Source: a virus (lineage: Duplodnaviria; Heunggongvirae; Uroviricota; Caudoviricetes). Taken from it: DNA of 13,781 bases. The notes beneath the pieces were generated by a model. The model worked only from the letters and a program-made list of their open reading frames with translations, was not told where the DNA came from and did no database searches. Positions within the stretch are counted from its first letter, which is position 1. Every line of letters begins with the position of its first letter. A program made the position numbers and the translations under genes. Positions 1 to 13,781 of this stretch are shown here, piece by piece. The stretch covers positions 1 to 13,781 of IMG/VR virus record IMGVR_UViG_2531839665_000026. One strand, 5' to 3'.

Positions 1-294
1 GGACATCATGCGAGCGGTCGGCTCAATTTCGGCATACAGTGCCGTGCGGCCTGCCAGCGGGCCATCGGTTATGTCTTCGGTGCTCAACCCCACAACATCG
101 CCCATAGCGGAAAACTCGCTACCGGGGAGTGGTGACAGGATGTGCTCAATATTCACACGTGCACCATAAACGGACGGGTTATAACTGGTGGCGGCAGCTT
201 TCAGCATGTCGCCGTTGATTTCGCGCCCGTCTGCCGTTACACCGGAGACAGCCACGCGAAACTTTTTGCGGGATGTCTTTTTTTCATTAGCCAT
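1..294 (-). CDS. O: Capsid scaffolding protein gpO-like, N-terminal 98 codons only (gene continues beyond left edge)
   Basis: Minus-strand frame is open from ATG at 292-294 to position 1, so it is absent from the ORF track. GAGGGG lies 8 nt upstream of the ATG. Translation begins MANEKKTSRKKFRVAVSGVTADGREINGDMLKAAATSYNPSVYGARVNIEHI..., which resembles the P2 gpO N-terminus as I recall it. It is divergent from P, as in P2. Confidence 0.75.
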   Translation of the reverse strand, partial: MANEKKTSRKKFRVAVSGVTADGREINGDMLKAAATSYNPSVYGARVNIEHILSPLPGSEFSAMGDVVGLSTEDITDGPLAGRTALYAEIEPTARMMS

Positions 295-448
295 AGTTTT
301 TGCCCCTCTGACTGGTTCTTCAGTCATGATGGCAAAGCGTAACAGGCTGATACAAAGGGCTTTTGTTGTAAGAAAACGGCCAGAACAGGGGGTTAAGGAG
401 AACAGTTTCGCGCGCGGGTAATCTTCCTGTAATTACTCAGGGGGAGCA
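295..448. promoter_or_regulatory. Divergent O/P intergenic region, expected site of the late promoters
   Basis: 154-bp gap between divergent start codons (O at 294, P at 449). This is positional inference only: I could not find a clean TGT-N12-ACA activator dyad of the kind described for P2 late promoters. Confidence 0.3.
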
Positions 449-2200
449 ATGATTCAGGACGCTTTTGTGCGCCAGCGTGCGCGGCAACTTTACTGGCAGG
501 GTTATCCGCCCGCAGAAATATCACGTCTGATGGGAATAAACCCGAACACGATTTATGCGTGGAAAAAACGCGACCAGTGGGATGAAACGCCACCCGTGCA
601 GCGTGTCACGCAGTCCATCGATGCGCGCCTCATCCAGCTCACTGAAAAACAGAATAAAACAGGTGGTGACTTCAAGGAAATAGACCTGCTGACCCGGCAG
701 CTTAAAAAACTGCATGATGGCCAGCCGGATGCGACGGCCACAGGAAAGAAAGGCCGGGCGAAAAAACTCAAAAATCATTTCACGCCGGAACAGATTGCCG
801 CACTGCGGGAAAAAATCATCAGCAGGCTGGAGTGGCATCAGCGGGGCTGGTTTGACTCCCTGACCCTTTGCAGGGAAGCCGGGATACGTAACAGGATGAT
901 CCTGAAATCCCGACAGATTGGGGCGACCTGGTATTTTGCACAGGAAGCACTGCTGATGGCGCTGCGTGACGATGTGGCGCAACCTTACCAGCGTAACCAG
1001 ATTTTTTTGTCTGCGTCGCGTCGTCAGGCGTTCCAGTTTAAAAGCATTATTCAGAAGGCCGCGGCTGAAGTTGATGTGGAGCTGAAAGGGGGCGATAAAA
1101 TCATCCTCTCAAACGGCGCAGAGCTGCATTTTCTCGGCACTTCTGCTGCGTCGGCACAGTCCTATACGGGCAATTTTTATTTTGATGAATTTTTCTGGGT
1201 CAGTCGCTTTGCCGAACTGCGCAAGGTGGCTGGCGCTATGGCAACCCTCAGCGGACTGCGGCGCACCTACTTCTCCACGCCATCCACCGAAACGCACGAG
1301 GCATACGCCTACTGGAACGGCGACCGCTGGAACGAGAAAAAGGCCTCGCATAAACGCCAGCGTTTTTCTGTGGACTGGAAAACGCTGCATAACGGGCTTA
1401 TCTGCCCTGACCGGACGTGGCGGCAAATTGTCACGCTGGAAGATGTGGTTAATCACGGCTGGAAACACACCGATATTGACGAAATCCGTGATGAAAACAC
1501 CGAAGACGAGTTCCTCAATCTCTATATGTGTGAGTTTGTTCGCGAAGGGGAATCGGCATTTAACCTGAATATCCTGATTGGCTGCGGTGTTGACGGATAC
1601 GACGACTGGAAAGACTGGAAACCTTTTGCTCCCCGCCCGATGGGGAATCGTCCGGTATGGATTGGGTATGACGCAAACGGCAGCAGTGGCAACGGGGACA
1701 GCGGCGCTGTGTCCGTGGTGGTTCCTCCGGCTGTTCCTGGTGGCCGTTTTCGAACGGTGGAGACGCGACGCGTTCAGGGGCTGGAGTTTGAAGAACAGGC
1801 CAGAGTCATTGAAGAGTTCACGTGTCGCTACAACGTGGAACACATCGGCATTGATGTGACGGGCGGGAACGGGGAGGCTGTTTATCAGATAGTGAAACGG
1901 TTTTTCCCTGCCGCTATTCCGTACACCTTCACGCTGTCATCCAAACGGTCGCTGGTACTGAAAATGCAGCAAATAATGCGTGCCGGACGGTGGGAATACG
2001 ATCGCGCCGAACGCGAGCTGGTCGCGGCCTTTAACGCCGTGCGTAAGGTGAAAACACCGGGTGGCTTTATCACTTACGAAACGGACCGCGCGAGGGGGAT
2101 CAGCCACGGCGACCTTGCGTGGGCAACCATGCTTGCTGTCATTAACGAACCAATTGGCGGCGAAGGAGAAAAACGAGCGTTTCACGGTTATGGAGTTCTG
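449..2200 (+). CDS. P: Terminase large (ATPase/nuclease) subunit gpP-like; no in-frame stop, frame continues into the portal
   Basis: N-terminal HTH-like segment (YWQGYPPAEISRLMGINPNTIYAWKKRDQWDE), Walker A-like KSRQIGATWYF, Walker B-like FYFDEFFW, and acidic nuclease-domain motifs (WIGYDANGSSGNGDSGAVSVV, HGDLAWATMLAV). The 584 codons before the internal ATG at 2201 compare with about 590 aa for P2 gpP. AGGGGG lies 4 nt before the ATG at 449. Confidence 0.85.
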
Positions 2201-3247
2201 ATGAGCAGAAAAAATAAAAAAGTGCGCATGAGTTCACGCATTGATCTCGCTGATGCGCTCAGGAAAGAATCATCGCTCAGTGCATTCACATTTGATGGTC
2301 CTTATCGCCTGACCGGGCATGACCTGCTGGACAATATGTACTGTGCTGATAACGGGCGGTGGTATGAAACCCCGGTGGACTGGTACGGTCTGGCAAGAGC
2401 CGCCCGGCAAACGTCCTGGCATCAGTCTGCGCTTTACTTTAAGCGCAATGTATTGCTCGGTTGCTACATCCCGCACCCGCTGCTTTCCCGGCAGGATTTC
2501 TCGGCGCTGGCGCTGGACTGGTTTGTGTTCGGTAACGCATTCCTTGAGCTTCGGAGCAATATGCTCGGCGAACCACTTAAATTACGGCACGCACTGGCGA
2601 AATACATGCGACGCGGAAGCGATCTTGAATCATGGTGGTATGTGCAGGATGGCAAGGACGCGTTTCAGTTTCGCCCTGGCAAAGTGTGCCACCTGATGAA
2701 TCCGGACATTAACCAGGAAATTTACGGCATGCCGGAATATCTCGGCGCATTACTCTCGGCCAGCCTGTCTCATTCGGCGGACATGTTCAGAAAACTGTAT
2801 TACGACAATGGATCCCACGCCGGGTGCATCATCTACATCGGTGCAGCGCAGGTAAACCGCGAAAGCATGGACTCCCTGAAAGAAACGCTACAGGGTGCGC
2901 GTGGTGGTGGTGCGTTTAAAAACGTGCTCATTCATGCGCCCAACGGGGGCAAAGAGGGGGTGCAAATTTTGCCGTTCCAGCAGATCACCGCAAAGGATGA
3001 GTTCATGAATGTTAAGGCGGCATCCCGTGATGATGTGCTGGCTGCGCACCGCGTTCCGCCGCAACTGATGGGGGCGATGCCGGGTGAAAAAAGTGCGTTT
3101 GGTGATGTGGAGAAGGCCGCGCGGGTTTACGCAATTAACGAGCTGATGCCCGTCATGGAGGCCATGAAGCATATCAATGACTGGCTTGGCGAAGAGGTGA
3201 TCCGATTTAACCCTTACGCACTGCTGGACACCCAGCCCACATCCTGA
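2201..3247 (+). CDS. Q: Portal protein gpQ-like (348 aa if initiated at the internal ATG at 2201)
   Basis: Follows P on the same strand as in P2. ATG at 2201 is preceded by GGAG at 2192-2195 (5-nt spacer). Length of 348 aa compares with about 344 aa for P2 gpQ. It has a basic N-terminus (MSRKNKKVRMSSR) followed by a conserved-looking core. Stop codon TGA at 3245-3247. Confidence 0.7.
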   Translation: MSRKNKKVRMSSRIDLADALRKESSLSAFTFDGPYRLTGHDLLDNMYCADNGRWYETPVDWYGLARAARQTSWHQSALYFKRNVLLGCYIPHPLLSRQDFSALALDWFVFGNAFLELRSNMLGEPLKLRHALAKYMRRGSDLESWWYVQDGKDAFQFRPGKVCHLMNPDINQEIYGMPEYLGALLSASLSHSADMFRKLYYDNGSHAGCIIYIGAAQVNRESMDSLKETLQGARGGGAFKNVLIHAPNGGKEGVQILPFQQITAKDEFMNVKAASRDDVLAAHRVPPQLMGAMPGEKSAFGDVEKAARVYAINELMPVMEAMKHINDWLGEEVIRFNPYALLDTQPTS

Positions 3248-3272
3248 CGCGCTTCGCTTGTCTGCTGCTTCG

Positions 3273-3297
3273 CCGGGGCATAAAAAATTTATGCCCC
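3273..3297. other. Perfect 11-bp-stem hairpin (CGGGGCATAAA / TTTATGCCCCG, loop AAA) 26 nt after the Q stop
   Basis: Inverted repeat read directly. There is no U tract on either side, so it is not a canonical intrinsic terminator. It could be an RNA-stabilising stem or a protein-binding palindrome in the cos-proximal region. Confidence 0.6.
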
Positions 3298-3575
3298 GAC
3301 TCTCCAGCTCCTGTATCAATCAGATAATTTCACGACGTCTTCCAGCTTATCGCCATCATCGACGGTCAGGCTCTTACGCAATCCCACTGCGCTGACTGCA
3401 TGTTCTCGCCGCCTCAGTGCGATTTTGACGGCCTTATCTGCTACCCCATCAAATCAAAAGTCCTCACGTCTTTTTCATGCTCAGCGTGAGAAATACAGCC
3501 ATTCTGTTGTGTCGCTGCGACATCGTTCAGGGGATGCTATTTACCCCCTGAAACGCGGGCTGTTCCCCCGTCACC

Positions 3576-3601
3576 TGCGCGCAGAAAAAGCGCGTTTTTT
3601 T
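3576..3601 (+). terminator. Intrinsic terminator for the P-Q transcript
   Basis: GC stem CGCGC (3578-3582) / GCGCG (3590-3594), loop AGAAAAA, followed by T7 (3595-3601). Confidence 0.6.
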
Positions 3602-3609
3602 GTGCACGC

Positions 3610-3628
3610 ACGGATCCTTGACGGATCC
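3610..3628. repeat. Direct repeat ACGGATCC x2 separated by 3 bp
   Basis: ACGGATCC at 3610-3617 and 3621-3628, immediately after the T-run of the plus-strand terminator. Confidence 0.5.
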
Positions 3629-3671
3629 AACTGCCACGCGGGCCGGAAGGGCAAAAATTCGTTCAAAAAAA

Positions 3672-3698
3672 TTGTGCAAATTTGTGCACTATTGTGCA
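3672..3698. repeat. Three helically phased direct repeats TTGTGCA at exact 10-bp spacing
   Basis: TTGTGCA at 3672-3678, 3682-3688 and 3692-3698. The middle copy contains the palindrome GTGCAC. They lie in the non-coding cos-expected region between Q and the cargo operon. Confidence 0.6.
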
Positions 3699-3705
3699 TT
3701 GAAAT

Positions 3706-3728
3706 AAACGCCCTGGAAGAGGGCGTTT
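3706..3728 (-). terminator. Stem-loop terminator ending the minus-strand cargo operon (partly bidirectional)
   Basis: AAACGCCCT (3706-3714) / AGGGCGTTT (3720-3728), loop GGAAG, 10 nt past the stop of the 112-aa gene. On the minus-strand RNA the stem is followed by AUUUC. Confidence 0.6.
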
Positions 3729-3738
3729 TGGCTCATTT

Positions 3739-4077
3739 CTATAGCTTTGATGCAGGCTGGGCTAGGTCTCCTTTGATGCCAGTGTTTACAACCTGACAAG
3801 CCTCTTTGAGTACCCAGTCAACAGCGTCTTTCCATGCTCCGGTTTCGGCTGGCGGATTCTCACGCTTTACCAGTTCATAGAATCGTACTGCTCTAACCAG
3901 TCCATCTGACGGTTTTGCCTGTAGTGCAGCCTGAGCTATGCGGTATGCCTGGAGCATACGGGCGTCGTTGATATCCATTCCGAACGGAATTTCTGATGAT
4001 TGTGATTCTGCATCTTCAAGCCTGGCAATTTCTTTACGTAAAAAGTATTTCAACTCTTGTTTTTGTTTTCTGTTCAT
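3739..4077 (-). CDS. Hypothetical protein, 112 aa, last gene of the cargo operon
   Basis: ORF with AGGGAA-type SD 6 nt upstream of ATG at 4077. Charged and probably helical ([26 protein letters not shown]...). No family recognised. AT-rich relative to the phage backbone. Confidence 0.55.
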
Positions 4078-4405
4078 GCGTTTTTCCCTTTTTGTCTGTC
4101 ACTTCTCTCCTGATAATTTCATTGCACAAATCCACGCACTCATTGCAGATGCAAACAGACGGTCCGGCAATCACCTTTGTGACTTCGTACTGAGATTTAT
4201 TGCAGAAGCTGCAATAAATCGTCTCCTCGCCTGAAGTCCATGTTTTGCTGGTTTCGCCAGACATCAGTTGTTTGAGGTCTTTTTCACGACGAAGAACTAT
4301 CTGGCCACATTCAGCTATTTTTTGGATGTTGACATTTTCTTCTTTCGCCAGCGCTTCCATCCGCTCAATCAGTCGCTGCGCTTTTTCTCTGTCAATGTGT
4401 TGCAT
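4034..4405 (-). CDS. Small protein (123 aa) with a ClpX-type C4 zinc-ribbon domain
   Basis: Residues around 62-100, [39 protein letters not shown], align almost position for position with the N-terminal zinc-binding domain of E. coli ClpX as I recall it ([40 protein letters not shown]). GGGGG SD lies 5 nt before ATG at 4405. The last 44 nt overlap the next gene. Confidence 0.65.
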
Positions 4406-4439
4406 TGTGTCCCCCTTGTTTATGTTCCCGGATTAAAGT

Positions 4440-4463
4440 CATCAGGGCGGATGCGCCCTGATG
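4440..4463. other. Intra-operon perfect hairpin between the parR-like and zinc-ribbon genes
   Basis: CATCAGGGCG (4440-4449) / CGCCCTGATG (4454-4463), loop GATG. A third copy of CGCCCTGAT follows at 4484-4492. Confidence 0.5.
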
Positions 4464-4468
4464 TTGTG

Positions 4469-4780
4469 TTATTCGGGAAATAACGCCCTGATATTTCCGG
4501 CCATCCGACTGGTTATCTGTGTGGTTGGTACTGGCTGTGACGCGGGGCGTTCTGTCCTGGTTTGTGTCACTGATAACGCCTCATCGTCAGCCCATGCAGC
4601 CAGTCGGTAAGCCTCTGCCGGATTCATTTTCAGAAGTGCCAGCCCGGCCAGAAAAGCCACACGTTGGCCGCTTTTGCGGGCTTCTGGTGTAAGGCTGTCC
4701 AGCCAGGCGCATGCTTCGCCTTCGTTCTTGACGGCGGCGGGCTTCAGATAGAAACTTATCCGTCTGGTTGGTGTCGTCAT
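4469..4780 (-). CDS. parR: ParR-like small DNA-binding protein (103 aa from internal ATG)
   Basis: Translation from ATG at 4780 (MTTPTRRISFYLKPAAVKNEGEACAWLDSLTPEARKSGQRVAFLAGLALLKMNP...NIRALFPE) parallels plasmid R1 ParR as I recall it (..RTIAFKLNP...CDTLDSIPQGERSRLNRAALTAGLALYRQDP...NILRSLFPKE). GGAG lies 7 nt upstream, inside the end of parM. There is a 4-nt gap after the parM stop. The upstream 45 codons of the ORF-track entry overlap parM and are not used. Confidence 0.65.
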   Translation of the reverse strand: MTTPTRRISFYLKPAAVKNEGEACAWLDSLTPEARKSGQRVAFLAGLALLKMNPAEAYRLAAWADDEALSVTQTRTERPASQPVPTTQITSRMAGNIRALFPE

Positions 4781-4784
4781 TGGT

Positions 4785-5744
4785 TTACTCCTTGTCCATT
4801 GCGTACAGCCCATTAACCAGAGCAAACTGTGGCACCCCGTCCGCGATGAAAGTCGCATTAACTCCGCAGGCTTCGCGGATAGCGGGTGCCGCAATCTCCG
4901 CCCCGCCACCGACAACCATCACCCGCCCGTAACCCGAAAAACCCGCCAGCGCGCGGATCACTCGTTGTTTCAGTGTTTCTTCCTTTTCACGAATAACCGC
5001 CATCAGGCTGTCGTAATGCGCGTCATTGTGGATGTGCTGGCGCAGCCAGGCTTCATCGTGGCGATGTTCGATAATGGTATTGGCGATATGGTGACTGGTA
5101 CGCATACCGTTAGTGGCCATCACCGACAGTACGGCATCGGCTATCAGGGAAACGCCTACGTGTGGATCGCAAAACACCTGGCTGATACCTGCCAGTTGTC
5201 CCTGGACCTTTGCCACATCCAGCGTGGTTCCGCCTAAATCCACAATCAGCAGGGATTCAAACGGACTCATGTCAGCCAGAGCCTTAAAGCCAGCCGGAAT
5301 GGATTCAGGCATAACCCGCACGTTACGGATAGTGAATGCTTCGCCGTTCTGGTACTCCACCGGGCGCATAACGTTCGCTTTTTTGCGGTTGATGTTGGCC
5401 ATGTCCGGCTGTGCGTTTGTGTCGAAATACTCGCTCAGTGGCAGGGTGACAACCACATCCACCTCCTGTGGCGTGATGCCTGATTTGACCAGTGCGTGAT
5501 GAATGGCAATGACATTCACATCGCTGTATTGGTATTGCGTGTCGGTCGTCTGGACAAAGCGATCGCTGACCGGATCAAAACCGTAGCGCACGCCATCAAG
5601 CATGTAGTTCGCGGGCTGCGTGCCACTGAACGGCGCAGACCATTCCGACTTGAAGCTGTTCGGGCTGATGGCGTTGCGGCGTTCGCCGTTCTCAGTCCAT
5701 GCCAGCTTGATGTTGGTGGAGCCGTCGTCGATACAAATTTTCAT
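4785..5744 (-). CDS. parM: ParM/StbA-like actin-fold segregation ATPase (319 aa)
   Basis: Alignable along its whole length to plasmid R1 ParM (StbA) as I recall it. Shared blocks include IDDGSTNIKL, YSDVNVIAIHHAL, VMPESIPAG, DLGGTTLD and VVGGGAE. Length of 319 aa compares with about 320 aa for R1 ParM. Confidence 0.8.
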   Translation of the reverse strand: MKICIDDGSTNIKLAWTENGERRNAISPNSFKSEWSAPFSGTQPANYMLDGVRYGFDPVSDRFVQTTDTQYQYSDVNVIAIHHALVKSGITPQEVDVVVTLPLSEYFDTNAQPDMANINRKKANVMRPVEYQNGEAFTIRNVRVMPESIPAGFKALADMSPFESLLIVDLGGTTLDVAKVQGQLAGISQVFCDPHVGVSLIADAVLSVMATNGMRTSHHIANTIIEHRHDEAWLRQHIHNDAHYDSLMAVIREKEETLKQRVIRALAGFSGYGRVMVVGGGAEIAAPAIREACGVNATFIADGVPQFALVNGLYAMDKE

Positions 5745-5776
5745 GTCGCTTTTCCTTATGTTGATTAATTAATCGT

Positions 5777-5811
5777 TTACGGGATTCTGAAATCCCGTTT
5801 TTGCCTGTTTT
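5777..5811. repeat. Repeat R1: 35-bp hairpin-containing unit in the A/parM intergenic space (candidate parC-like site or promoter)
   Basis: TTACGGGATTCTGAAATCCCGTTTTTGCCTGTTTT. The internal stem ACGGGAT/ATCCCGT is followed by a T-rich tail on the plus strand. Confidence 0.6.
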
Positions 5812-5820
5812 GTGCGCGCT

Positions 5821-8643
5821 TCATATATCGCTGCGCGTTTTTTGCTCATTTACGGGATTCGTGAGTCCCGTTTCTGTCTGTTTTTTGTTTCCACTGGTCA
5901 GGCCACCCTGCAGCAGGTCTGCTTTGCGGTTGGCGCGTTCAGTGGTTTCACTGATTCTCTGTGCGTGCTCTGCGTCACGGATGGCGCGCAGCATGTCAGA
6001 AAGCACGGTAACGGGGGTTTTCATGGTGTTCTGGTCCTGCTGAAGTGTGGATGCCAGACGTGCGGCGGCTTCGGGGTCTGATGCCCCCAGTTGTTCCAGA
6101 TAGCTGGCGACCGGGTTATGGCGGATCTCTGTGCTGCTTACGCCGTGATTACGGCTCAGGCGCTGCCAGAGCTGCGTGATTCGGCTGTCCGGGCGGGTAT
6201 CCGGTTTGCGTACAATTTCAAATCCCTGCGGTGCAATGATGCTGCCGTCAACGTACAGGCTGCCGCCCCGTAGCAGGTGCTGCATCTGCTGTTCACCGAT
6301 ATGCAGGCCGAGAGATTCGGCAGACTCCCGCCATTCTTTAGCGAGTAATTCGTGGTTATCAGGCAAAGGCCGCTGCTGTTTGCGGCTCTGTGTCCAGCTC
6401 TGCATTTCATCACTGCTGTTTTTTGCCTGTTTGTCACGAAGCGAACGCATCAGCGCCCGGCGTTCGTGCCGTTTCAGTGAGCGCATCCATTCGTTCACTT
6501 CAACGCCATCAGGGAGCTGCGGCCACGGTGCTGGCTGTTCTTCCGGCTGTTCTGTCCCGTTGTTGTTCGTTTCCTGTACACGGGGACAGTTATTGCCACG
6601 AGTCCAAGGGGCGGCAGGGCCGCCCTGAAGGTCAAAACCATTTTCGCGGGCGCTGTCTTCCGCTTCCGGTTTACGTCTTACCAGCTTCCAGTTATCCGGA
6701 TGTGTGCACACACGGGAAGACTCCCCGATGAGTGGTGACCAGATCCCGTAAATCTGTACGCTCTGTTCGCCGTAATCGTTCAGCTCATCTGCGAGGTCGT
6801 AGGCGGTGCGAATCAGGTAGTCTTTGCGTGGAACAAGTACGCCGCCCTGTTTCTCAATGTAGGAGGCAAAACATCCGGCATCAGCGGCAGCGAGCACTGC
6901 ATCCATTGCGTCATCCTTCAGCCGTTGCGGGCCTTCCGGGTTGCGTGCCATCTGGCTGGCAAGGCGACGCAGTTCACGCCACACCTGACGGGAGGGGATG
7001 CCAAAGAACTGGAACTGGCGGACCCGGTGAAGGCGCGCCCAGCCAATGGCGCGTTCCACGCTCTCGGTCATTGATTTTCCGGTTTCGTGGTCAACGCGTG
7101 GTTTGCCTGTTTTCGGGTCGATGCCATCCACGGCGCGGCTGTCCAGGTTCTTTCCGATGTAGGTGGCGATGTAGCTGGTTGGCGTGCCTTTTGAGCCGTC
7201 GACGTACTCCGCTTTAAAACGCGGAGTTATGTCATCGCCCAGCTCGTGGCGGTCTTCCTGAATGGCAATATCGCAGACGTGGGACACGATGGTTTCAATC
7301 TCGTCCGGATGTGCAAAGACCATCATATGCCAGTGCACGGTGCCGTCATGGTGAGGCTCCACCGTGCGGATGCCATACCAGCGCAGGCCGTCGCGGTTCA
7401 GTTTCTTGCGGACCGCCGCAAAAAACGTGTTAACCAGGTAATCGCTGGAGTCGCGCATGGTGGCCCCGTTCCATTTGGGATTCGGATGACCGTTCTCTGT
7501 TGTAGCGTGGTATTTTGACGGGCAGGTGACAGTCAGAAACACCGCTCTGTCGCCACGGGCTTCGGCCAGAAGTTCCAGTCCCTTCATGGTGGCCATCATT
7601 TCTGCCTTACGGTGAACCGGGTTACTTACTCCCGCGTAATACACTGTCTCGAGATCAATCGTGAACCCGTCTTCATTTTCCAGCATGAAACTTTTCAGGA
7701 AATCGCGTGTTTTCTCGCGCTGTGCGCGAAACTCGCTTAACGCGTCCTGGCTCAGATAGGGTGATGTTTTTCTGGAAACCAGACAGGCGGCGCGGAGTTG
7801 TTCTTCTCTCCACTCGCAACGTAACAGCCACAATTTGCGTTTCCACCAGTCCGCACAGGTCAGGCGAAGGATTGCACCCGGCAGCAGTTCTGTGTCCGGT
7901 TCGTTCCTCCGGTCTTTGTCTGTTGTCAGTGCGTCATAATGTGGAGGCATGGTGTGCAGATGTAACGCCATGCGAGCCAGCAGCTGATACGCCTTCAGCG
8001 TTATATCCATGGTCAGCTCGCCATCGGTCGCGCCAAAGCCATCGCAGAGTTTTTCGAAGGTGCTGCTGAACATTGCCGCCGTCATGACGGCCAGTGTCTG
8101 TATCTGGTGTTTGTTGAGCTGCGGCAGGTAAAGTAAATCGTCCAGACGTTCACGTCCGGCAAGGGAGCGATAACCCGGAGTCAGCCAGCGTCCGTCAGTG
8201 CGGGCCAGACGTTCCAATATTTTGCGCAGGGTTCCGCGTGCATAGCGTTCCGCCTGCCAGCTCTTTTTGCCTTTCCGGCGATCGGCTTCCTGCTTTTTGC
8301 GCAGGAAGGAGAGGTGGCGAATAAGCGGATCGCGCAGATAGGACGGCAGCAGGCGCAGCGAGGCCATGGCTTCATCCACCGCACCGCGTGCCTGTTTTCT
8401 GGCGTCTCTGGCCAGTGTGATGGTTTTGTCCTGCTTTTCCTGTGCGTCCAGGCTTTTATTAATCAGGTTGCCCAGCGGCGTTGCGGAGAACGCCGCATCA
8501 GCCATTTCCTGGCGTCGCTCGTTCTCTACCCGGTAAGCATCCAGCCAGGAGGAAAGCGCGGATTCAGGTGCGGGGATCCCCGTACCTTCACGCCCTACTG
8601 CGTGGCGCGGTTGTTGCCAGTCCCTGATGTACTCTGTCGTCAT
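5821..8643 (-). CDS. A: Rolling-circle replication initiator gpA-like (HUH endonuclease), 940 aa
   Basis: Long minus-strand ORF with an HUH-type motif (TVHWHMMVF) and paired tyrosines (TSYIATYIGK), as in the P2 gene A protein. It sits downstream of cox and the small early genes, as in P2. It is longer than P2 gpA (about 761 aa) because of a C-terminal extension. Confidence 0.85.
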   Translation of the reverse strand: MTTEYIRDWQQPRHAVGREGTGIPAPESALSSWLDAYRVENERRQEMADAAFSATPLGNLINKSLDAQEKQDKTITLARDARKQARGAVDEAMASLRLLPSYLRDPLIRHLSFLRKKQEADRRKGKKSWQAERYARGTLRKILERLARTDGRWLTPGYRSLAGRERLDDLLYLPQLNKHQIQTLAVMTAAMFSSTFEKLCDGFGATDGELTMDITLKAYQLLARMALHLHTMPPHYDALTTDKDRRNEPDTELLPGAILRLTCADWWKRKLWLLRCEWREEQLRAACLVSRKTSPYLSQDALSEFRAQREKTRDFLKSFMLENEDGFTIDLETVYYAGVSNPVHRKAEMMATMKGLELLAEARGDRAVFLTVTCPSKYHATTENGHPNPKWNGATMRDSSDYLVNTFFAAVRKKLNRDGLRWYGIRTVEPHHDGTVHWHMMVFAHPDEIETIVSHVCDIAIQEDRHELGDDITPRFKAEYVDGSKGTPTSYIATYIGKNLDSRAVDGIDPKTGKPRVDHETGKSMTESVERAIGWARLHRVRQFQFFGIPSRQVWRELRRLASQMARNPEGPQRLKDDAMDAVLAAADAGCFASYIEKQGGVLVPRKDYLIRTAYDLADELNDYGEQSVQIYGIWSPLIGESSRVCTHPDNWKLVRRKPEAEDSARENGFDLQGGPAAPWTRGNNCPRVQETNNNGTEQPEEQPAPWPQLPDGVEVNEWMRSLKRHERRALMRSLRDKQAKNSSDEMQSWTQSRKQQRPLPDNHELLAKEWRESAESLGLHIGEQQMQHLLRGGSLYVDGSIIAPQGFEIVRKPDTRPDSRITQLWQRLSRNHGVSSTEIRHNPVASYLEQLGASDPEAAARLASTLQQDQNTMKTPVTVLSDMLRAIRDAEHAQRISETTERANRKADLLQGGLTSGNKKQTETGLTNPVNEQKTRSDI
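5849..5883. repeat. Repeat R2: second copy of the 35-bp unit, lying inside the last codons of gene A
   Basis: TTACGGGATTCGTGAGTCCCGTTTCTGTCTGTTTT. 29 of 35 positions match R1, with most differences in the hairpin loop. It sits 72 bp to the right of R1. Confidence 0.6.
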
Positions 8644-8649
8644 ACTGAT

Positions 8650-9015
8650 TTACTTCGTCATGCCATTCAGGGTGTCACGGCAAACGGCAGCCAGACGCTG
8701 AATTTCCAGCACGGTGTCTTCTGTGTCGGCATGGCGATGTGTGATGCGGATGCTGTCGGCAATCACATCGACGATTGCAGAGGATGGGCGCTGGTAAATG
8801 CCAATAACGGACGGGGTGCCACCTTCAATGCGGTAAAGCCTGTAATTTCCCTCGTGGCTGTCAATCATGTAGCGACCATCAATAACAATCTTTCCGTCAG
8901 CGAGCTGCGGTACAGGCAGGGATTTCAGGTACATGTCATAACGATCACGCACGCGAGCGGCAAGATCACGCTCTGTGTTGAGCAGGTATTCAAGAAAGTC
9001 GTTGGCGAGAATCAT
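8650..9015 (-). CDS. Hypothetical early protein, 121 aa
   Basis: ORF with AAGAGGA SD 8 nt before ATG at 9015. Its stop is 7 nt before the A start. No family recognised. Confidence 0.6.
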   Translation of the reverse strand: MILANDFLEYLLNTERDLAARVRDRYDMYLKSLPVPQLADGKIVIDGRYMIDSHEGNYRLYRIEGGTPSVIGIYQRPSSAIVDVIADSIRITHRHADTEDTVLEIQRLAAVCRDTLNGMTK

Positions 9016-9087
9016 TGCGGCAATCCTCTTGTTACAGATGTGCGAAGGCCTCCCGCCGCAAGGTGCAGGAAAGGCCCGGAACAGGAA

Positions 9088-9318
9088 TTAATGGAGTTTG
9101 TTTTGCTGCTGGATGAGCTGTTGAAGCTCGTGCAGATCATCCGCCAGATAACTGAAAACAGAGGCGGAATAAATGTTTGATAGTGCGTGGCTGCGCTCAT
9201 GCAGCATATTGATGTGCATGATTTGCGCGACGCGTGATGCGCGGAAAAGTCTACGGTTGATTTCAGTCTGGATGTGACGACGCGCAGCGTATGCGCGCTG
9301 TTGTTTGCGGTTTGCCAT
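9088..9318 (-). CDS. Hypothetical early protein, 76 aa
   Basis: ORF with AGAGG SD 7 nt before ATG at 9318. Basic N-terminus (MANRKQQRAYAARRHIQTEINRR). Confidence 0.55.
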   Translation of the reverse strand: MANRKQQRAYAARRHIQTEINRRLFRASRVAQIMHINMLHERSHALSNIYSASVFSYLADDLHELQQLIQQQNKLH

Positions 9319-9361
9319 GGTGTGGCCTCTTTGCTCGGTGATAGAAATAGCTCACCATCCA

Positions 9362-9404
9362 GAGTTGAGAATCTCGGGGTGGCGAGACGTACAGGGTTCT
9401 CAAC
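9362..9404. repeat. Inverted repeat GTTGAGAA ... TTCTCAAC (25-nt loop), with a third direct copy of GTTGAGAATC at 9540-9549
   Basis: GTTGAGAATC at 9364-9373, its inverse TTCTCAAC at 9397-9404, and GTTGAGAATC again at 9540-9549. Both direct copies are preceded by CTTTGCTC. Confidence 0.55.
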
Positions 9405-9495
9405 ACCGGAGAGCAAAGAATCCGGCCCGACCGAAGTCGGCCCCGTACGCCCCGCCATAATTCTGACGCGAAAAAGACGTGGCAATACAGTACGC

Positions 9496-9518
9496 ACAAA
9501 AAAACCGCTGGCGCGGTT
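9496..9518 (-). terminator. Intrinsic terminator on the minus strand, downstream of the 67/88/99-aa gene block
   Basis: Stem AACCGC (9503-9508) / GCGGTT (9513-9518), loop TGGC. The plus-strand A7 run (9498-9504) becomes the U tract of a minus-strand transcript. Confidence 0.6.
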
Positions 9519-9590
9519 ATGCGCTTTGCTCTGTATCGGGTTGAGAATCCCGGCACCCGTTTTATGAGGTGCAGCGGAAATGTAACCTGA

Positions 9591-9619
9591 CCGATTGCGG
9601 CATGGCAAGCGGTTTTTTT
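9591..9619 (+). terminator. Intrinsic terminator on the plus strand, ending an unannotated plus-strand transcript
   Basis: CCGATTGC (9591-9598) / GCAAGCGG (9605-9612) with one A-G mismatch, loop GGCATG, followed by T7 (9613-9619). Confidence 0.5.
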
Positions 9620-9640
9620 GTGTGTGCATGTTCTGGTTTC

Positions 9641-9940
9641 TTACTGGTTCAGAAAAAAATCAAAAACCTTGTCAATGCGTTGCAGCAGCTCTTGCTGTAT
9701 TGCTTCCGGCGTTTCCGGTTCGCCGGGTGCCTCCAACGTCGCGCAGAAATCAGCGATTTCATGATGGAGTGTCAGGCGAATGGCAGGAGCCGTGGTTCTG
9801 GCGTGCTCCAGCTCATCCAGCAGTGCCAGCACAGCAGACGGCGAGAGCATTGCGCGAAACGCCAGTAATTTTTGAGGCGTTGCCATTCGTTGCAGGGCAA
9901 ATGCCAGTTCGCGTAGCTTCTGGTGGTTGATGGTGCTCAT
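9641..9940 (-). CDS. Hypothetical protein, 99 aa
   Basis: ORF whose ATG overlaps the upstream stop as ATGA (9937-9940). No family recognised. Confidence 0.55.
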   Translation of the reverse strand: MSTINHQKLRELAFALQRMATPQKLLAFRAMLSPSAVLALLDELEHARTTAPAIRLTLHHEIADFCATLEAPGEPETPEAIQQELLQRIDKVFDFFLNQ

Positions 9941-10203
9941 GTTCTGGCTTCCTTCAGTAGCTGGTTAAACATGTGAGTAAGTGGATTGCTACACCCGAAC
10001 GGCATCGGGTTTACGTGGTAAGAAGCCTGGCCTCCAGTTTTGCGAGCGCGACCACCTGTGCTGCGGTTTGTTCTGATGACTAAGCCGCCGCGCCAAAGTT
10101 GGCGTAACTCAGCATTAATGGCTGTGGTTGGAGTATTCAGTGCTGCGGCGATCTCTCCGCCGCTACAACCCGGATGAGTAGCGATGTAGTCCAGAATGGT
10201 CAT
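9937..10203 (-). CDS. Putative winged-helix DNA-binding protein, 88 aa
   Basis: ATGA overlap with the upstream gene (10200-10203). The N-terminal LDYIATHPGCSGGEIAAALNTPTTAINAELRQL is typical of a wHTH recognition segment. This is a weak fold-level inference. Confidence 0.5.
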   Translation of the reverse strand: MTILDYIATHPGCSGGEIAAALNTPTTAINAELRQLWRGGLVIRTNRSTGGRARKTGGQASYHVNPMPFGCSNPLTHMFNQLLKEART

Positions 10204-10403
10204 CTGCGTGGCTCCTGTACCTGTCGGATAAGATTCACCCGCGCCACGTTGGTGGCGCAGAAGTAAGTGCCGTCAGTGAGGTAGATGTGGTGTGCATCCT
10301 TTTCCGAACGATGTTTGTCGATAGTGGTAATCAGGCGTTCGTCGACCTCGTATTCGCGCCCTCTGGAGGTAAAGCGAACGACGGGAAAATGCTTAATTGC
10401 CAT
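10200..10403 (-). CDS. Hypothetical protein, 67 aa
   Basis: Strong AAGGAGG SD 5 nt before ATG at 10403. First gene of a three-gene translationally coupled block. Confidence 0.55.
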   Translation of the reverse strand: MAIKHFPVVRFTSRGREYEVDERLITTIDKHRSEKDAHHIYLTDGTYFCATNVARVNLIRQVQEPRR

Positions 10404-10489
10404 TACGCCTCCTTGGCGTGTGCGAATACCTCCGCGAATGCGGATTGTTTTTACATTTTCTTATTTAATCTGTGGTTTTATTTGCTCTG

Positions 10490-10603
10490 TTATTCGCCAG
10501 TGAAAAAGCGTTCAATCTTTTTTATTGAATGAATAATTCGCATAATCCCAATAGCGCAGGCCACCGAAATAATCAGAACAAGCCATGAGATAAATATACT
10601 CAT
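10490..10603 (-). CDS. Small hydrophobic peptide, 37 aa (below the ORF-track cutoff)
   Basis: ATG at 10601-10603 overlaps the stop of the upstream 80-aa gene as ATGA. Translation MSIFISWLVLIISVACAIGIMRIIHSIKKIERFFTGE has one predicted transmembrane helix and a basic tail. Confidence 0.45.
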   Translation of the reverse strand: MSIFISWLVLIISVACAIGIMRIIHSIKKIERFFTGE

Positions 10604-10842
10604 GCGATATTCCCCAGCTCATACGGTTCAATATGTTCCCCGCATTCTGCGGCACAGATCAGCTCGGAAAGTTCGTTAAGTGCATCCAGATCATCAGCGT
10701 AAAAAGCCACGTCATACAGACTTCGGATTGCTCTGGTCAATGAGTCACGGGCCGCACGTTCAGCATGAGCGCCTGATGCACTTAAGCGAAAATAAAAGCG
10801 CTCAAGTGCTTTGTTAATGAGAGTTTTATATTCTTTGCCCAT
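10600..10842 (-). CDS. Hypothetical protein, 80 aa
   Basis: ORF starting 11 nt after the stop of the upstream gene. No family recognised. Confidence 0.5.
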   Translation of the reverse strand: MGKEYKTLINKALERFYFRLSASGAHAERAARDSLTRAIRSLYDVAFYADDLDALNELSELICAAECGEHIEPYELGNIA

Positions 10843-10853
10843 CGCAACGCCCT

Positions 10854-11141
10854 TTAATCTGCTTTCTGAATTTCAGTTTCTGAATCCATACAGATAATTT
10901 CGATATAGGGTTTATCGCCATTAACCTGACGAGCCTTTTCAGCTTCGCTAATGATTTCGCGTACGGTCTGGTACGGAAGTTCCACGATCAGTCGCGTGCC
11001 GTTCAGATAAACGTAAGTGGCTTCGGCGGCTCCGTTTTTCCCCGCCGGAGCCACTCCATCAATAGCGGATGCGCGTAATAACAGTTCACCGCGAAAATCA
11101 ATAAAGCGGATAAATACACCTTGAGTATGGTCTTTAGTCAT
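10854..11141 (-). CDS. Hypothetical protein, 95 aa (internal start of the 115-codon ORF-track entry)
   Basis: ATG at 11141 is preceded by AGGTG (5-nt spacer) and avoids overlap with the upstream gene. The longer start at 11201 would overlap that gene by 50 nt. Confidence 0.5.
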   Translation of the reverse strand: MTKDHTQGVFIRFIDFRGELLLRASAIDGVAPAGKNGAAEATYVYLNGTRLIVELPYQTVREIISEAEKARQVNGDKPYIEIICMDSETEIQKAD

Positions 11142-11151
11142 AAAGCACCTG

Positions 11152-11493
11152 TTATAAATCAGCCTGTTTAATAAAACTCTGTCCACGCAGCAGACGATCA
11201 ACCGTGCGAAGCGCTTCGTATAATGTGAAATCCTGCCCGAACTGATTGTCGCCGCTGCTCAGAGCAAAAATGCGGTTTCCGGTAAACGGATTGCGCGGGC
11301 ATTTGTGGACCACGATTCCAGCTTTCTCAATCAGCCAGGCATGCTCGCCGATTTGTTTTACTGGGTAGCCATCCGGCGTTGCGTGTGTATCACTCAGGCT
11401 GTAGCGGATGTTGCTGCGTGATGCACTGGTAGCAAAACGGTTAGCGTGGCGTTCTGCACCATTGCGAAAGCGTGAATTACGTTGCTGTTTCAT
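11152..11493 (-). CDS. Hypothetical early protein, 113 aa
   Basis: ORF in the early operon between cox and A. It may correspond positionally to one of the P2 early genes (B region), but I cannot confirm this by sequence. Confidence 0.5.
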   Translation of the reverse strand: MKQQRNSRFRNGAERHANRFATSASRSNIRYSLSDTHATPDGYPVKQIGEHAWLIEKAGIVVHKCPRNPFTGNRIFALSSGDNQFGQDFTLYEALRTVDRLLRGQSFIKQADL

Positions 11494-11494
11494 G

Positions 11495-11602
11495 TTAAAG
11501 ACTCTGTACAGATTTAATTATTCCGGCATAGAGGCCGAACTCAAAATATTTGCGATTAAATCGCATCGCATTGTTTTCACGTTTTGCGGACTGCTGGTTC
11601 AT
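11495..11602 (-). CDS. Small ORF, 35 aa (below the ORF-track cutoff)
   Basis: GGAGG lies 8 nt before ATG at 11602. Its stop TAA is 1 nt before the ATG of the 113-aa gene. Translation MNQQSAKRENNAMRFNRKYFEFGLYAGIIKSVQSL. Confidence 0.4.
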   Translation of the reverse strand: MNQQSAKRENNAMRFNRKYFEFGLYAGIIKSVQSL

Positions 11603-11653
11603 TTTCGTTTGCCTCCGCACATGAGAATTGCGCCGCTTAAGAGGTAACCGAAG

Positions 11654-11676
11654 TTAATTGATAGTATTACAATTAA
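11654..11676. repeat. Inverted repeat TTAATTG-N9-CAATTAA in an intergenic gap of the early operon
   Basis: Read directly. It lies between the 68-aa membrane protein gene and the 35-aa ORF. It may be an operator or an internal promoter element. Confidence 0.4.
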
Positions 11677-11745
11677 CATAAGGTCCAATTTGTCCATGCC
11701 ACACATAATTACCCTCATTGCAGTAGTTGTGGGTTGTCAGGTTTC

Positions 11746-11952
11746 TCACCCGATAAACCAGATAACAAACGCTATCAACATCGCCCCAATAGCTGCCGGG
11801 AAAAGTCCTTTGGTATAAGCGGCGATATATTCAATGCTGAGTTCAATAAAGCGTTCTTTATGTCCCGTTAACTTGCGAAACAAATAGATCTCTATTACGC
11901 CTATCTCAATAAAAACAAGGGTCAGAATGGCGCTGATGATATGGCTGGTCAT
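11746..11952 (-). CDS. Small membrane protein, 68 aa, two predicted transmembrane helices
   Basis: Starts 6 nt after the cox stop. Two hydrophobic stretches (IISAILTLVFIEIGVIEIYLF and AAIGAMLIAFVIWFIG). Confidence 0.5.
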   Translation of the reverse strand: MTSHIISAILTLVFIEIGVIEIYLFRKLTGHKERFIELSIEYIAAYTKGLFPAAIGAMLIAFVIWFIG

Positions 11953-11958
11953 TTATGA

Positions 11959-12246
11959 CTAAAGTCCCAGCCACAACAACCATGCGTCGCGGCGTTCTTT
12001 CGGTTGCTCAAAAAACGCTTTGCGCATGCCTTCGTTAAATGCTGGCAGATATACCCAGTTTTCTGATGCACGCGTCTTTACTGAACCTGGTTTCACAAAG
12101 TCAATTGTTGGTAGCTTTGCTGCGTCAATCATGGTTCTGACTGTGGATTCCTTGCGGCCGATCATCTTGGCGAATAGTTGATATGGCACCGCTTCAAGTG
12201 GATATGGTGCTACCTGAATGAACCCCCCAAGCTCTGATTCGCTCAT
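11959..12246 (-). CDS. cox: Cox-like excisionase / early-operon regulator (95 aa)
   Basis: Matches P2 Cox as I recall it (VPYQLFAKMIGRKESTVRTMIDAAKLPTIDF...ENWVYLPAFNEGMRKAFFEQPKERRDAWLLWLGL against ...IPYQEFAKLIGKSTGAVRRMIDKGKLPVIDM...EYWVYLPAWNNGLKLAYESRPKEIRDGWLMWLGL). AGGGAGA SD. Divergent from C. Confidence 0.85.
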   Translation of the reverse strand: MSESELGGFIQVAPYPLEAVPYQLFAKMIGRKESTVRTMIDAAKLPTIDFVKPGSVKTRASENWVYLPAFNEGMRKAFFEQPKERRDAWLLWLGL

Positions 12247-12320
12247 TGTGGTAATCTCCCTAATTCGTTCGAATGGCTCAAAATGGCTTATATCGGCTTA
12301 TTTGAGTGTTTTTATGTTTG

Positions 12321-12366
12321 TGCCCGATGTGGCATGTTGTGATGGAGGACATGCCCGATATGGCAT
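12321..12366. promoter_or_regulatory. Putative immunity operator: two 15-bp direct repeats in the cox/C switch region
   Basis: TGCCCGATGTGGCAT (12321-12335) and TGCCCGATATGGCAT (12352-12366), 31 bp apart. The second overlaps the likely C start. A consensus TTGACA on the minus strand at 12370-12375 abuts the second repeat. P2 C is known to bind a pair of direct repeats at the early promoter. Confidence 0.5.
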
Positions 12367-12680
12367 CTTTGTCAAGCATGGGTGAAAAATTTCGCCTGAT
12401 TCGTGAAGCAGAAGGTATGACCCGCCAGGAGTTTGCGGATTGTGTTGGGCTGCCTTATGGGACGGTAACTAACTATGAGGTGAGGGGGAAGCAAGTAACA
12501 GAGGGTGCCTTACTTAAGGTTACGAAACACCCTAAATTTAAGAAGTATGCTTATTGGTTATCAACAGATGAAACGATGCCGGAGGTCGGGCAAATTTCTC
12601 CGGCTCTCTCTCTTGATGGTTCCTGCAATTCGGAGGGAGATCGCGTTTCAACCGAAACAATCCAAAAATTATCCCGCTGA
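12360..12680 (+). CDS. C: C repressor-like immunity repressor (106 aa from ATG at 12360)
   Basis: MGEKFRLIREAEGMTRQEFADCVGLPYGTVTNYE...KFKKYAYWLSTDETMPEVGQISPALS parallels P2 C as I recall it (ISEKIVLMRKSEYLSRQQLADLTGVPYGTLSYYE...QFTKYTLWFMTNQIAPESGQIAPALA). The start is ambiguous between 12342, 12360 and 12378; the ORF-track start at 12306 is unlikely. Confidence 0.8.
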   Translation: MASLSSMGEKFRLIREAEGMTRQEFADCVGLPYGTVTNYEVRGKQVTEGALLKVTKHPKFKKYAYWLSTDETMPEVGQISPALSLDGSCNSEGDRVSTETIQKLSR

Positions 12681-12776
12681 GGCCAGAAAACTGGTTAGAC
12701 CTGCTTTTTGTCTGGTCTGATTATTGCTGGAAAGAGGCTGGAGAAATTGTAGAGCGGTTCATTGGAGGGCTTCGTA

Positions 12777-13781
12777 ATGTCGATTAAGAAGCTCGAAGAT
12801 GGTCGTTATTTGCTGGACATCAGGCCGAACGGACGCAAGGGAAAGCGCGTGCGTAAGGTATTTGACAAAAAATCGGTAGCGGTGGCCACTGAACGCTACA
12901 TCATGGCGAACGCTGAAAAGCGGGAATATATACAGGGCTACCGTGATCGTCGAACGCTAAATGATTTGCTTGAGTTGTGGTGGATGTATCACGGCCAGCA
13001 CAGGCGTAAGGCGGAAGAAGACCGAAAACAACTGCGCAACATAATCAATGAGCTTGGCGCTGATATGCAGGCTGTGGATCTTGATAAGCTGAAAATTATC
13101 GCGTGGCGTTCTCAAAAGATAGCTGATGGATTGAAACCGTCATCTGCTAACAGGTACATGAATCGGTTATCCGGAATGTTTACCGTGCTGAAAAAAATAG
13201 GTCTTTGGGATGCAGAACATCCAGTAAGGGGAATTTCTATTCTTTATGTATCTCCACGAGAAATGGCGTTCCTGTCACAGAAGGAAGTGGCGCTATTGCT
13301 CGATACACTGGAGGGCGACTACTGGCGTGTTGCGCTTTTGTGTTTAAGCACAGGGGCGCGCTGGAGTGAAGCTTGTAAGCTTCGTGGTGAACAGATAGTT
13401 CATAACCGTGTAACGTTTCTTGAAACCAAAAATGGCCGGAAGAGAACAGTGCCAATTTCGCAGGCAGTTTGTGAGGCGATCAAAACCAGAGAAACAGGCG
13501 GCTTGTTTGAGGTGAAGTACCGGGAATTCTGCCTGGCGCTGAAAAGAGTTAAGCCCGATTTACCAAAAGGCCAGGCTGCACATGTGCTGCGGCATACGTT
13601 CGCCAGCCATTTTGTGATGAACGGAGGAAACATTATTGCGCTTCAGAAGATTCTTGGTCACGCAACCATTCAGCAAACAATGGCATATGCGCATTTTGCA
13701 CCGGATTACCTGCAGGATGCGGTGGCCCTTAATCCGCTGAAAGGTGGCGTAAGTGTCCACGCAGTGTCCACGGGGGATTAA
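12777..13781 (+). CDS. int: P2-type tyrosine integrase (334 aa)
   Basis: From ATG at 12777 (GGAGGG SD with 7-nt spacer): MSIKKLEDGRYLLDIRPNGRKGKRVRKVFDKKS..., with the catalytic region ...LRHTFASHF...LGHATIQQTMAYAHFAPDYLQDAVALNP. This closely parallels P2 Int as I recall it. Stop codon at 13779-13781, the window edge. Confidence 0.9.
   Translation: MSIKKLEDGRYLLDIRPNGRKGKRVRKVFDKKSVAVATERYIMANAEKREYIQGYRDRRTLNDLLELWWMYHGQHRRKAEEDRKQLRNIINELGADMQAVDLDKLKIIAWRSQKIADGLKPSSANRYMNRLSGMFTVLKKIGLWDAEHPVRGISILYVSPREMAFLSQKEVALLLDTLEGDYWRVALLCLSTGARWSEACKLRGEQIVHNRVTFLETKNGRKRTVPISQAVCEAIKTRETGGLFEVKYREFCLALKRVKPDLPKGQAAHVLRHTFASHFVMNGGNIIALQKILGHATIQQTMAYAHFAPDYLQDAVALNPLKGGVSVHAVSTGD

Follow-up and report, generated by a model that had tools for sequence, protein, structure and literature searches.

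A Duplicated Dyad Upstream of parM as a Likely parC-Like Site of the ParMRC Module in P88-Like Prophages

Introduction

Why should a prophage carry two similar hairpin-forming repeats, terminator-like on one strand, at the junction of two genes that are both encoded on the other strand? This question is raised by the repeats at the end of gene A and directly in front of parM in a viral DNA stretch of 13,781 nucleotides (nt), namely positions 1 to 13,781 of the IMG/VR record IMGVR_UViG_2531839665_000026, referred to here at its full length as the window. The window was identified as a P88-like prophage (genus Xuanwuvirus, P2 family) with a parM-parR cassette of the plasmid R1 type located after gene A; the 701 bases around the repeats are 97.7% identical to phage P88, whose gene order is likewise the same. 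An initial annotation, based on the letters of the window, had left several roles side by side: a ParR-binding centromere or operator, terminators against antisense transcription into A, or the scar or boundary of a cargo insertion. Comparison of related cassettes leads us to consider it likely that the two units form a parC-like, ParR-binding centromere or operator of a prophage ParMRC module.

Two Dyad Units in Front of parM

A direct-repeat search of the window yielded a single family, consisting of two 42-nt copies (5773-5814 and 5846-5887) that are 81% identical and lie 73 bp apart from start to start, one base more than the 72 bp originally reported. The 35-mers at 5777-5811 and 5850-5884 are identical at 29 of 35 positions, as had been stated, and form the top 35-mer pair at distances of up to 200 bp in the entire window; in 100 dinucleotide-preserving shuffles of the window, the best pair reached 22.5 matches on average and 25 of 35 at maximum. 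Most differences had been assigned to the hairpin loop, and four of the six mismatches indeed fall in the loop or at the loop-closing pair. Both units contain the dyad GGGAYT-N4-ARTCCC, extended to ACGGGATT/AATCCCGT, with flanking AAAAC boxes beside it. This dyad was found exactly twice in the window, where 0.10 occurrences are expected, and exactly twice in the 35.8-kb genome of P88. The features concerned are as follows:

5846-5887, minus strand: distal unit R2, CAAAAAACAGACAGAAACGGGACTCACGAATCCCGTAAATGA on the parM-sense strand, within the 21 final codons of A; conserved across 83 unique leaders
5854-5869, no strand assigned: core dyad of R2, GGGACTCACGAATCCC (GGG-N10-CCC)
5815-5845, minus strand: inter-unit spacer, with AAAAAACGCGC as the third A-tract box and GATATATGAAG as its AT-rich centre
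5773-5814, minus strand: proximal unit R1, CACAAAACAGGCAAAAACGGGATTTCAGAATCCCGTAAACGA on the parM-sense strand, in the A-parM gap
5781-5796, no strand assigned: core dyad of R1, GGGATTTCAGAATCCC (GGG-N10-CCC), 52 nt upstream of the parM ATG
5749-5757, minus strand: parM ribosome-binding site AAGGAAAAG
5745-5886, minus strand: whole parMR leader of 142 nt, putative parC region, with the left module boundary at about 5885-5886
8643-5821, minus strand: gene A, 940 amino acids; Phage_GPA, 3.8e-128
4785-5744, minus strand: parM, actin-like ATPase of 319 amino acids; Pfam StbA_N, 3.5e-82, and ParM, 6.7e-68
4469-4780, minus strand: parR, 103 amino acids; Pfam Plasmid_stab_B, 1.6e-24

The Pfam matches bear out the identities first proposed for A and parM. 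With the A stop codon at 5823-5821 and the parM ATG at 5744-5742, the gap between both genes measures 76 nt and holds the proximal unit, while the distal unit lies within the last 21 codons of A, whose tail is thus partly encoded by the repeat; both positions had been described correctly. Variability is higher in the spacer than in the units, and the spacer also occurs as one alternative allele.

The Units Travel with parM and parR

Of 5426 complete E. coli genomes, 1371 contain the region, among them O157:H7, O104:H4, and ST131 strains. With regard to its location, 1531 of 1533 places in E. coli genomes were chromosomal, with at most three copies per genome. One circular record, NZ_CP148288.1 (pZ1323PEC0009-2; 34,461 bp), was deposited as a non-mobilizable plasmid and is a complete P88-like phage with A-parM-parR, which hints at an episomal state.

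Two genomes carry the same A gene together with other cargo; there, similarity to the window ends at about 5921-5937 and the repeats are absent. Conversely, strain 2014EL-1345-2 and several IMG/VR contigs have the parMR cassette 400-560 bp past an unrelated A gene (32% identity), with both repeats present and unchanged and similarity beginning at AAAAACAGACAG, window position ~5885. Altogether, three different left junctions end at this same base. On the other side, the DNA past the parR stop diverges at once between contexts, so that the 142-nt leader is the sole non-coding DNA common to the module. Judged from these junctions, the mobile module is composed of the leader, parM, and parR. The repeats were found in every cassette context examined. 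When IMG/VR was scanned with the unit, 119 stretches matched, each of them just upstream of parM or at a contig end by which parM would be truncated; the parM genes beside these matches were 94-100% identical. It had been suggested to see in relatives whether the repeat always marks the A-proximal boundary of variable cargo. This holds for the parMR cassette, whose edge lies at R2, but not for A genes with other cargo, which lack the repeats.

Other candidates for parC repeats were rejected, the sequence after parR being context-specific and the dyad occurring nowhere else in P88.

The last 20-35 codons of A were seen to vary with the downstream cargo, which may be parMR, a methylase and AAA ATPase pair, or other genes (window 5887-5940; locus L010, 3898-4080; locus L011, 3960-4064). 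This places a cargo-exchange breakpoint inside the 3' end of A; in other words, the boundary of a hotspot for cargo exchange lies within the last codons of A, and the A tail changes with the cargo. In one of the loci with an unrelated A gene (L009, 4190-4585, minus strand), an unannotated open reading frame (ORF) of about 130 amino acids lies between A and the cassette. It has a GTG start overlapping the A stop and a Cys-rich N-terminus, and it ends inside the module with the same tail, KQTETGFTNPVNEQKTRRDI.

Core and Spacing Persist in Distant Cassettes

More distant cassettes, in each case located behind gene A, came from P2-like prophages of Hafnia, Plesiomonas, Serratia, and Enterobacter. 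In four lineages, exactly two GGG-N10-CCC units precede parM (positions of distal/proximal unit counted from the parM ATG; ParM identity where given):

E. coli (window): distal GGGACTCACGAATCCC, proximal GGGATTTCAGAATCCC; -125/-52; spacing 73
Hafnia-1 (ParM 95%): distal GGGATTCATGAATCCC, proximal GGGATTTGAAAATCCC; -124/-51; spacing 73
Hafnia-2 (ParM 61%): distal GGGATTGAGGAAACCC, proximal GGGTTCATTAAATCCC; -128/-55; spacing 73
Plesiomonas (ParM 62%): distal GGGACAACAAAAACCC, proximal GGGACAACACTAACCC; -131/-59; spacing 72

A pair of GGG-N10-CCC units at 70-75 bp arose with a frequency of at most 5e-5 per lineage in 20,000 shuffles each. The leaders of Hafnia-2 and Plesiomonas as a whole match the E. 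coli leader no better than shuffled sequences do (88-90 identical positions of 140 vs 80-82). In both of them, the inner stem and the T-tail of the units are gone, and only 3-4-bp stems with 10-nt loops are left.

All four lineages share the ParR strand TRR[IV]SFYL. In the Serratia/Enterobacter clade, the strand reads NRKISFYL; the half-site AAAAACGGGA is retained, with 17 nt identical to the flank of the E. coli unit R1, and it is arranged as a long inverted repeat. A short core whose spacing and distance from parM are fixed, and which changes together with the ParR strand, points to a protein-binding DNA site. As far as conservation can tell, this pattern is the signature of such a site and not that of a hairpin, a terminator, or a coding motif. 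The ParR-binding role, one of those offered by the initial annotation, is therefore the one that the comparative evidence favours, the repeats being inherited with parM-parR and not with A.

In place of the two local dyads, the Serratia/Enterobacter leaders (L230, 2870-2990; L231, L232, and L233; ParR strand NRKISFYLKP) display the inverted repeat GGGAACGAAATAGAAAAAT ... ATTTTTCTATTTC.T..CC and a second palindrome, GCCGTTTAAACGGC; two CAAAAAC boxes are still 72 bp apart.

Among ParR proteins of the E. coli type, identity ranges from 48 to 98%, with the first 28 residues (TRRISFYLKP...) and the last eight (NIRALFPE) constant and the leader nearly unchanged. The family profile matches the structure of the pB171 ParR (2JD3, 6.5e-10), the alignment beginning in the N-terminal strand at residue 6; a single-sequence search of the Protein Data Bank with ParR gave no match. 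A search of GTDB genomes with ParM returned only three near-identical loci, and searches of viral contigs returned one locus for the Plesiomonas ParM and none for that of Hafnia-2.

The parR gene itself is a mosaic (window 4469-4780; loci L012-L024 and L105-L143). Its middle part is variable, yet ParM is 94-99% identical and the leader nearly identical, and recombination breakpoints seem to lie inside parR.

Within E. coli-type leaders, of which sets of 67-83 unique sequences were compared, the units stand 73 bp apart in 79 of 83. The A-rich boxes (0.023) and the core arms (0.025) are the least diverse parts, and the loops vary most (0.154).

A Putative Centromere-Like Site and Its Mode of Action

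The units thus lie upstream of parM-parR (52 and 125 nt from the ATG), are repeated, are inherited with the cassette, and track the ParR strand, as a parC would. We propose that, together with the neighbouring A-rich boxes, they act as the cis-acting, centromere-like site of a plasmid R1-type ParMRC system that is carried as cargo just downstream of A. Ribbon-helix-helix dimers of ParR would place the N-terminal strand (TRRISFYLKP) in the major groove of the dyad half-sites and probably also contact the neighbouring AAAAC(A/G)G(G/A)C boxes. A distance of 73 bp corresponds to about seven helical turns and would put both units on the same face of the DNA, where two ParR clusters could cooperate in one nucleoprotein complex. 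With its conserved C-terminal tails (NIRALFPE), ParR would then catch ParM filaments at their growing ends, and the filaments would push DNA copies apart. Repression of parM-parR by bound ParR also seems probable, given the position of the proximal unit 20-50 bp in front of the parM ribosome-binding site. Binding, cooperativity, and autoregulation are what we infer from sequence comparison.

More tentatively, and with considerable doubt, the units may constitute a new ParR centromere architecture, with two dyads seven turns apart that are placed partly in the end of a rolling-circle replication gene. An integrating P2-family phage would use them not to be inherited as a plasmid but for the positioning or separation of its replicating or excised genomes, or for the upkeep of an occasional episomal state, at which the circular record of 34.5 kb hints. 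If so, the system would rank among the commonest actin-based DNA movers in E. coli, being present in about a quarter of the complete genomes.

Several points weigh against a role as centromere or operator. The GGG-N10-CCC pattern was derived from the E. coli and Hafnia-1 copies before it was tested on the other lineages. Diversity of the whole leader (0.05) equals that of third codon positions in parM (0.05), so the signal of constraint in the population is modest. Helical phasing of the A-tracts, which would indicate bent DNA, did not reach significance (p about 0.26). A consensus scan gave no convincing sigma-70 promoter in or between the units on either strand, which leaves the operator role weak; the weak candidates were TTCAGA-16-ATTAAT overlapping R1 and TGAGCA-15-TATATG in the spacer, with a better one in the Hafnia-1 spacer (TGAACA-16-TATAAG). 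parM may instead be read through from the early operon. Moreover, characterised ParR proteins bind short direct-repeat arrays, and two long dyad units are unusual for a parC (PMC9426499). In the literature on P88, Xuanwuvirus, and P2-like ParMRC, we found no study of the system and no experiment on binding, stability, or incompatibility.

Regarding its significance, every ParMRC system needs a centromere, and none had been defined for P88-like (Xuanwuvirus) prophages. With the site confined to a leader of 142 bp and its two 16-bp dyads, experiments have a direct handle, and they could reveal why an integrating phage of the P2 family retains an actin-like partition machine.

Alternative Explanations

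The units could instead serve a protein other than ParR, such as a host nucleoid protein or another phage regulator, or the recombination that moves the cassette. We regard this as improbable, although dyad symmetry fits many dimeric DNA-binding proteins, a palindrome beside R1 hints at more than one factor, and three different junctions place the edge of the module at R2. Of the DNA-binding proteins, ParR alone is encoded in all module contexts, while the ClpX-zinc-finger gene and others come and go, and the arrangement of the half-sites changes together with the ParR strand clade. As to recombination, the module encodes no integrase or recombinase, and the two copies do not flank the cargo as target duplications would, both being found on the same side of it. 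Of the proposal of a recombination scar or boundary, the boundary stood, R2 marking the A-proximal edge of the module; the repeats are part of the module, which takes both copies along wherever it goes, and are not a scar. The additional features mentioned here are the following:

5763-5774, no strand assigned: perfect 12-bp palindrome GATTAATTAATC, between R1 and the parM ribosome-binding site
Minus strand: ClpX-zinc-finger gene, neighbour of the cassette

The palindrome GATTAATTAATC is possibly a weak -10 candidate or an additional, second protein site. Some E. coli variants show a symmetric double change in it (GGTTAATTAACC), and its ATTAAT is retained in the leaders of Hafnia and Plesiomonas.

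Tandem plus-strand Rho-independent terminators, stopping antisense transcripts such as late-operon read-through before they reach gene A, are what the units resemble at first sight. Each copy folds into an 8-bp stem with four G-C pairs and a 4-nt loop, with energies of -10.2 to -10.4 kcal/mol on the plus strand and -9.0 to -10.7 kcal/mol on the minus strand (z-scores of -2.4 to -3.6). A simple terminator scan rated both copies as terminator-like on the plus strand, with a T-rich run after the stem. The late operon (terminase-portal, 449-3247, plus strand) also runs convergent toward the region. Nevertheless, this explanation is very unlikely. All genes adjoining the repeats are on the minus strand, just as had been remarked. 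No plus-strand gene ends nearby, the nearest one ending at 3247, and the late operon has its own hairpin and T-run at about 3268-3295, 2.5 kb from the repeats. Furthermore, the element tracks parMR and not A, as A genes with other cargo do without it, and Hafnia-2 and Plesiomonas keep the core and its spacing without a stable stem or a T-tail. Among 16 + 16 stem variants in 83 leaders, there was no double-sided compensatory change, and where a single stem transition leaves a G-U pair, this pair forms in the sense strand of R1 but on the opposite, antisense strand of R2. The terminator appearance is incidental; it would be a by-product of half-sites placed head to head beside A-tracts. An easy mis-annotation is corrected in this way, the units being terminator-like and probably not terminators.

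We assign an equally small chance to the idea that the hairpins act as RNA in the A-parM mRNA, as a processing site, stabiliser, attenuator, or translational control that sets parM against A. The sense-strand fold of each unit (-9.0 to -10.7 kcal/mol), the z-score of -5.0 for a 146-nt leader, the position of R1 20 nt upstream of the parM ribosome-binding site, and the G-U wobble pairs that common R1 variants retain in the sense strand would fit such a function. However, a strong z-score is expected of any two palindrome copies. R2 variants disrupt pairing in the sense strand, with C-A mismatches in 19 of 83, no double-sided compensation was seen, the stems are unconserved in Hafnia-2 and Plesiomonas, and the leader had no Rfam match at E <= 1.

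The last alternative concerns two further features:

5821-5886, minus strand: last 21 codons and stop of A (KQTETGLTNPVNEQKTRSDI*), a P88-lineage-specific tail whose coding DNA belongs to the module
5769-5849, minus strand: ORF of 26 amino acids (MSKKRAAIYEARTKQAKTGFQNPVND*), reading R1 in the frame used by A for R2

That the A tail KQTETGLTNPVNE and a 26-residue peptide ending in KQAKTGFQNPVND share a motif docking ParM, ParR, or a host factor is hardly credible: both copies are read in the same frame and 64 of 67 unique sequences, as well as Hafnia-1, have an intact small ORF, but A of Hafnia-1 stops within the R2 loop in another frame, the distal unit of Hafnia-2 sits in a different ORF and not in A, the small ORF is absent in Hafnia-2 and Plesiomonas and is preceded by no Shine-Dalgarno sequence, diversity is flat over codon positions (0.056, 0.067, and 0.077), indels in the A6 run swap frames freely, and unrelated upstream ORFs gain the same tail. 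The ORF at 5849-5769 is probably not a gene. One natural variant that has lost one A in the A6 run (5838-5843) fuses A to it; a programmed frameshift at this run, joining A and the small ORF, was considered and rejected, as nothing supports a programmed event.

Other Observations in the Window

Directly 3' of the parR stop, the region 4405-4468 contains the hairpin CATCAGGGCG-gat-CGCCCTGATG, probably the minus-strand terminator of the par operon in the context of the window; in other cassette contexts, it is swapped for unrelated sequences. In the late operon, a single ORF of 932 amino acids (449-3247, plus strand) covers both the terminase large subunit and the portal, whose genes are separate and overlapping in P88 itself. 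Relative to P88, the window has one extra A near 2169, about 30 nt before the terminase stop; a sequencing error in a homopolymer could account for it, or else a true frameshift that cripples the prophage.

Comparison with Known Systems

The best-known relative is parC of plasmid R1, which comprises 159 bp with two sets of five 11-bp iterons around a 39-bp promoter region; ParR dimers bind each set and repress the promoter (PMC2241845). The R1-type locus examined here shows these iterons. The prophage site shares the position directly upstream of parM-parR, two clusters around a centre of ~37-39 bp, A-rich boxes of the AAAAC type, and a cognate ParR of the same Pfam family (Plasmid_stab_B). 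Whereas the iterons of plasmid R1 are direct repeats of 11 bp (2 x 5, AAAAC-AACCC type) that enclose a mapped promoter, the prophage has two 36-42-bp units with an internal dyad, no clear promoter, and a distal unit that overlaps a coding sequence; its ParM is only about 46% identical to that of plasmid R1.

As a rule, direct repeats in front of parM make up parC, with a structure that varies from plasmid to plasmid (PMC9426499). In par1 of pB171, ParR is likewise a ribbon-helix-helix protein (2JD3), the N-terminal strand of which aligns with TRRISFYLKP, and few repeats, namely two 10-bp direct repeats, are found upstream of parM (cited in PMC9426499). These repeats are short, of other sequence, and without a dyad, however, and the recognition strand reads KKYTLYL. 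The closest plasmid relatives of the prophage ParM, with 50-52% identity, belong to IncI-gamma/K and IncF plasmids (pM217_I1, CP054717). In front of their parM lie two T/G-rich (A/C-rich) repeat clusters, separated by 43-61 bp, and their box GGTTTTTGTCTGTGTTTTT resembles CGTTTCTGTCTGTTTTTT of the window. In contrast to the prophage, they have no GGG-N10-CCC dyads, the box is opposite in orientation to parM, and the ParR strand is RKCSFYI or RKITFYL.

With Rho-independent terminators, the units of E. coli-type phages share the G+C-containing stem-loop and the T-rich run on the plus strand, but no plus-strand transcription unit ends there, and stem and tail are unconserved in distant cassettes. 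A possible functional parallel is provided by AlpC/AlpA/alpS of the Corynebacterium prophage CGP3, another integrated prophage with an actin-like filament protein, a DNA-binding adaptor, and cis sites, which serves phage DNA transport and replication and not plasmid inheritance (PMC4446434, PMC5539076). Proteins and sites are unrelated to those described here, and host phylum and phage type differ; any resemblance would be functional only. Taken together, the type of system is known, and the specific site is a previously undescribed one, with an unusual layout of two dyads, the distal unit overlapping the end of gene A.

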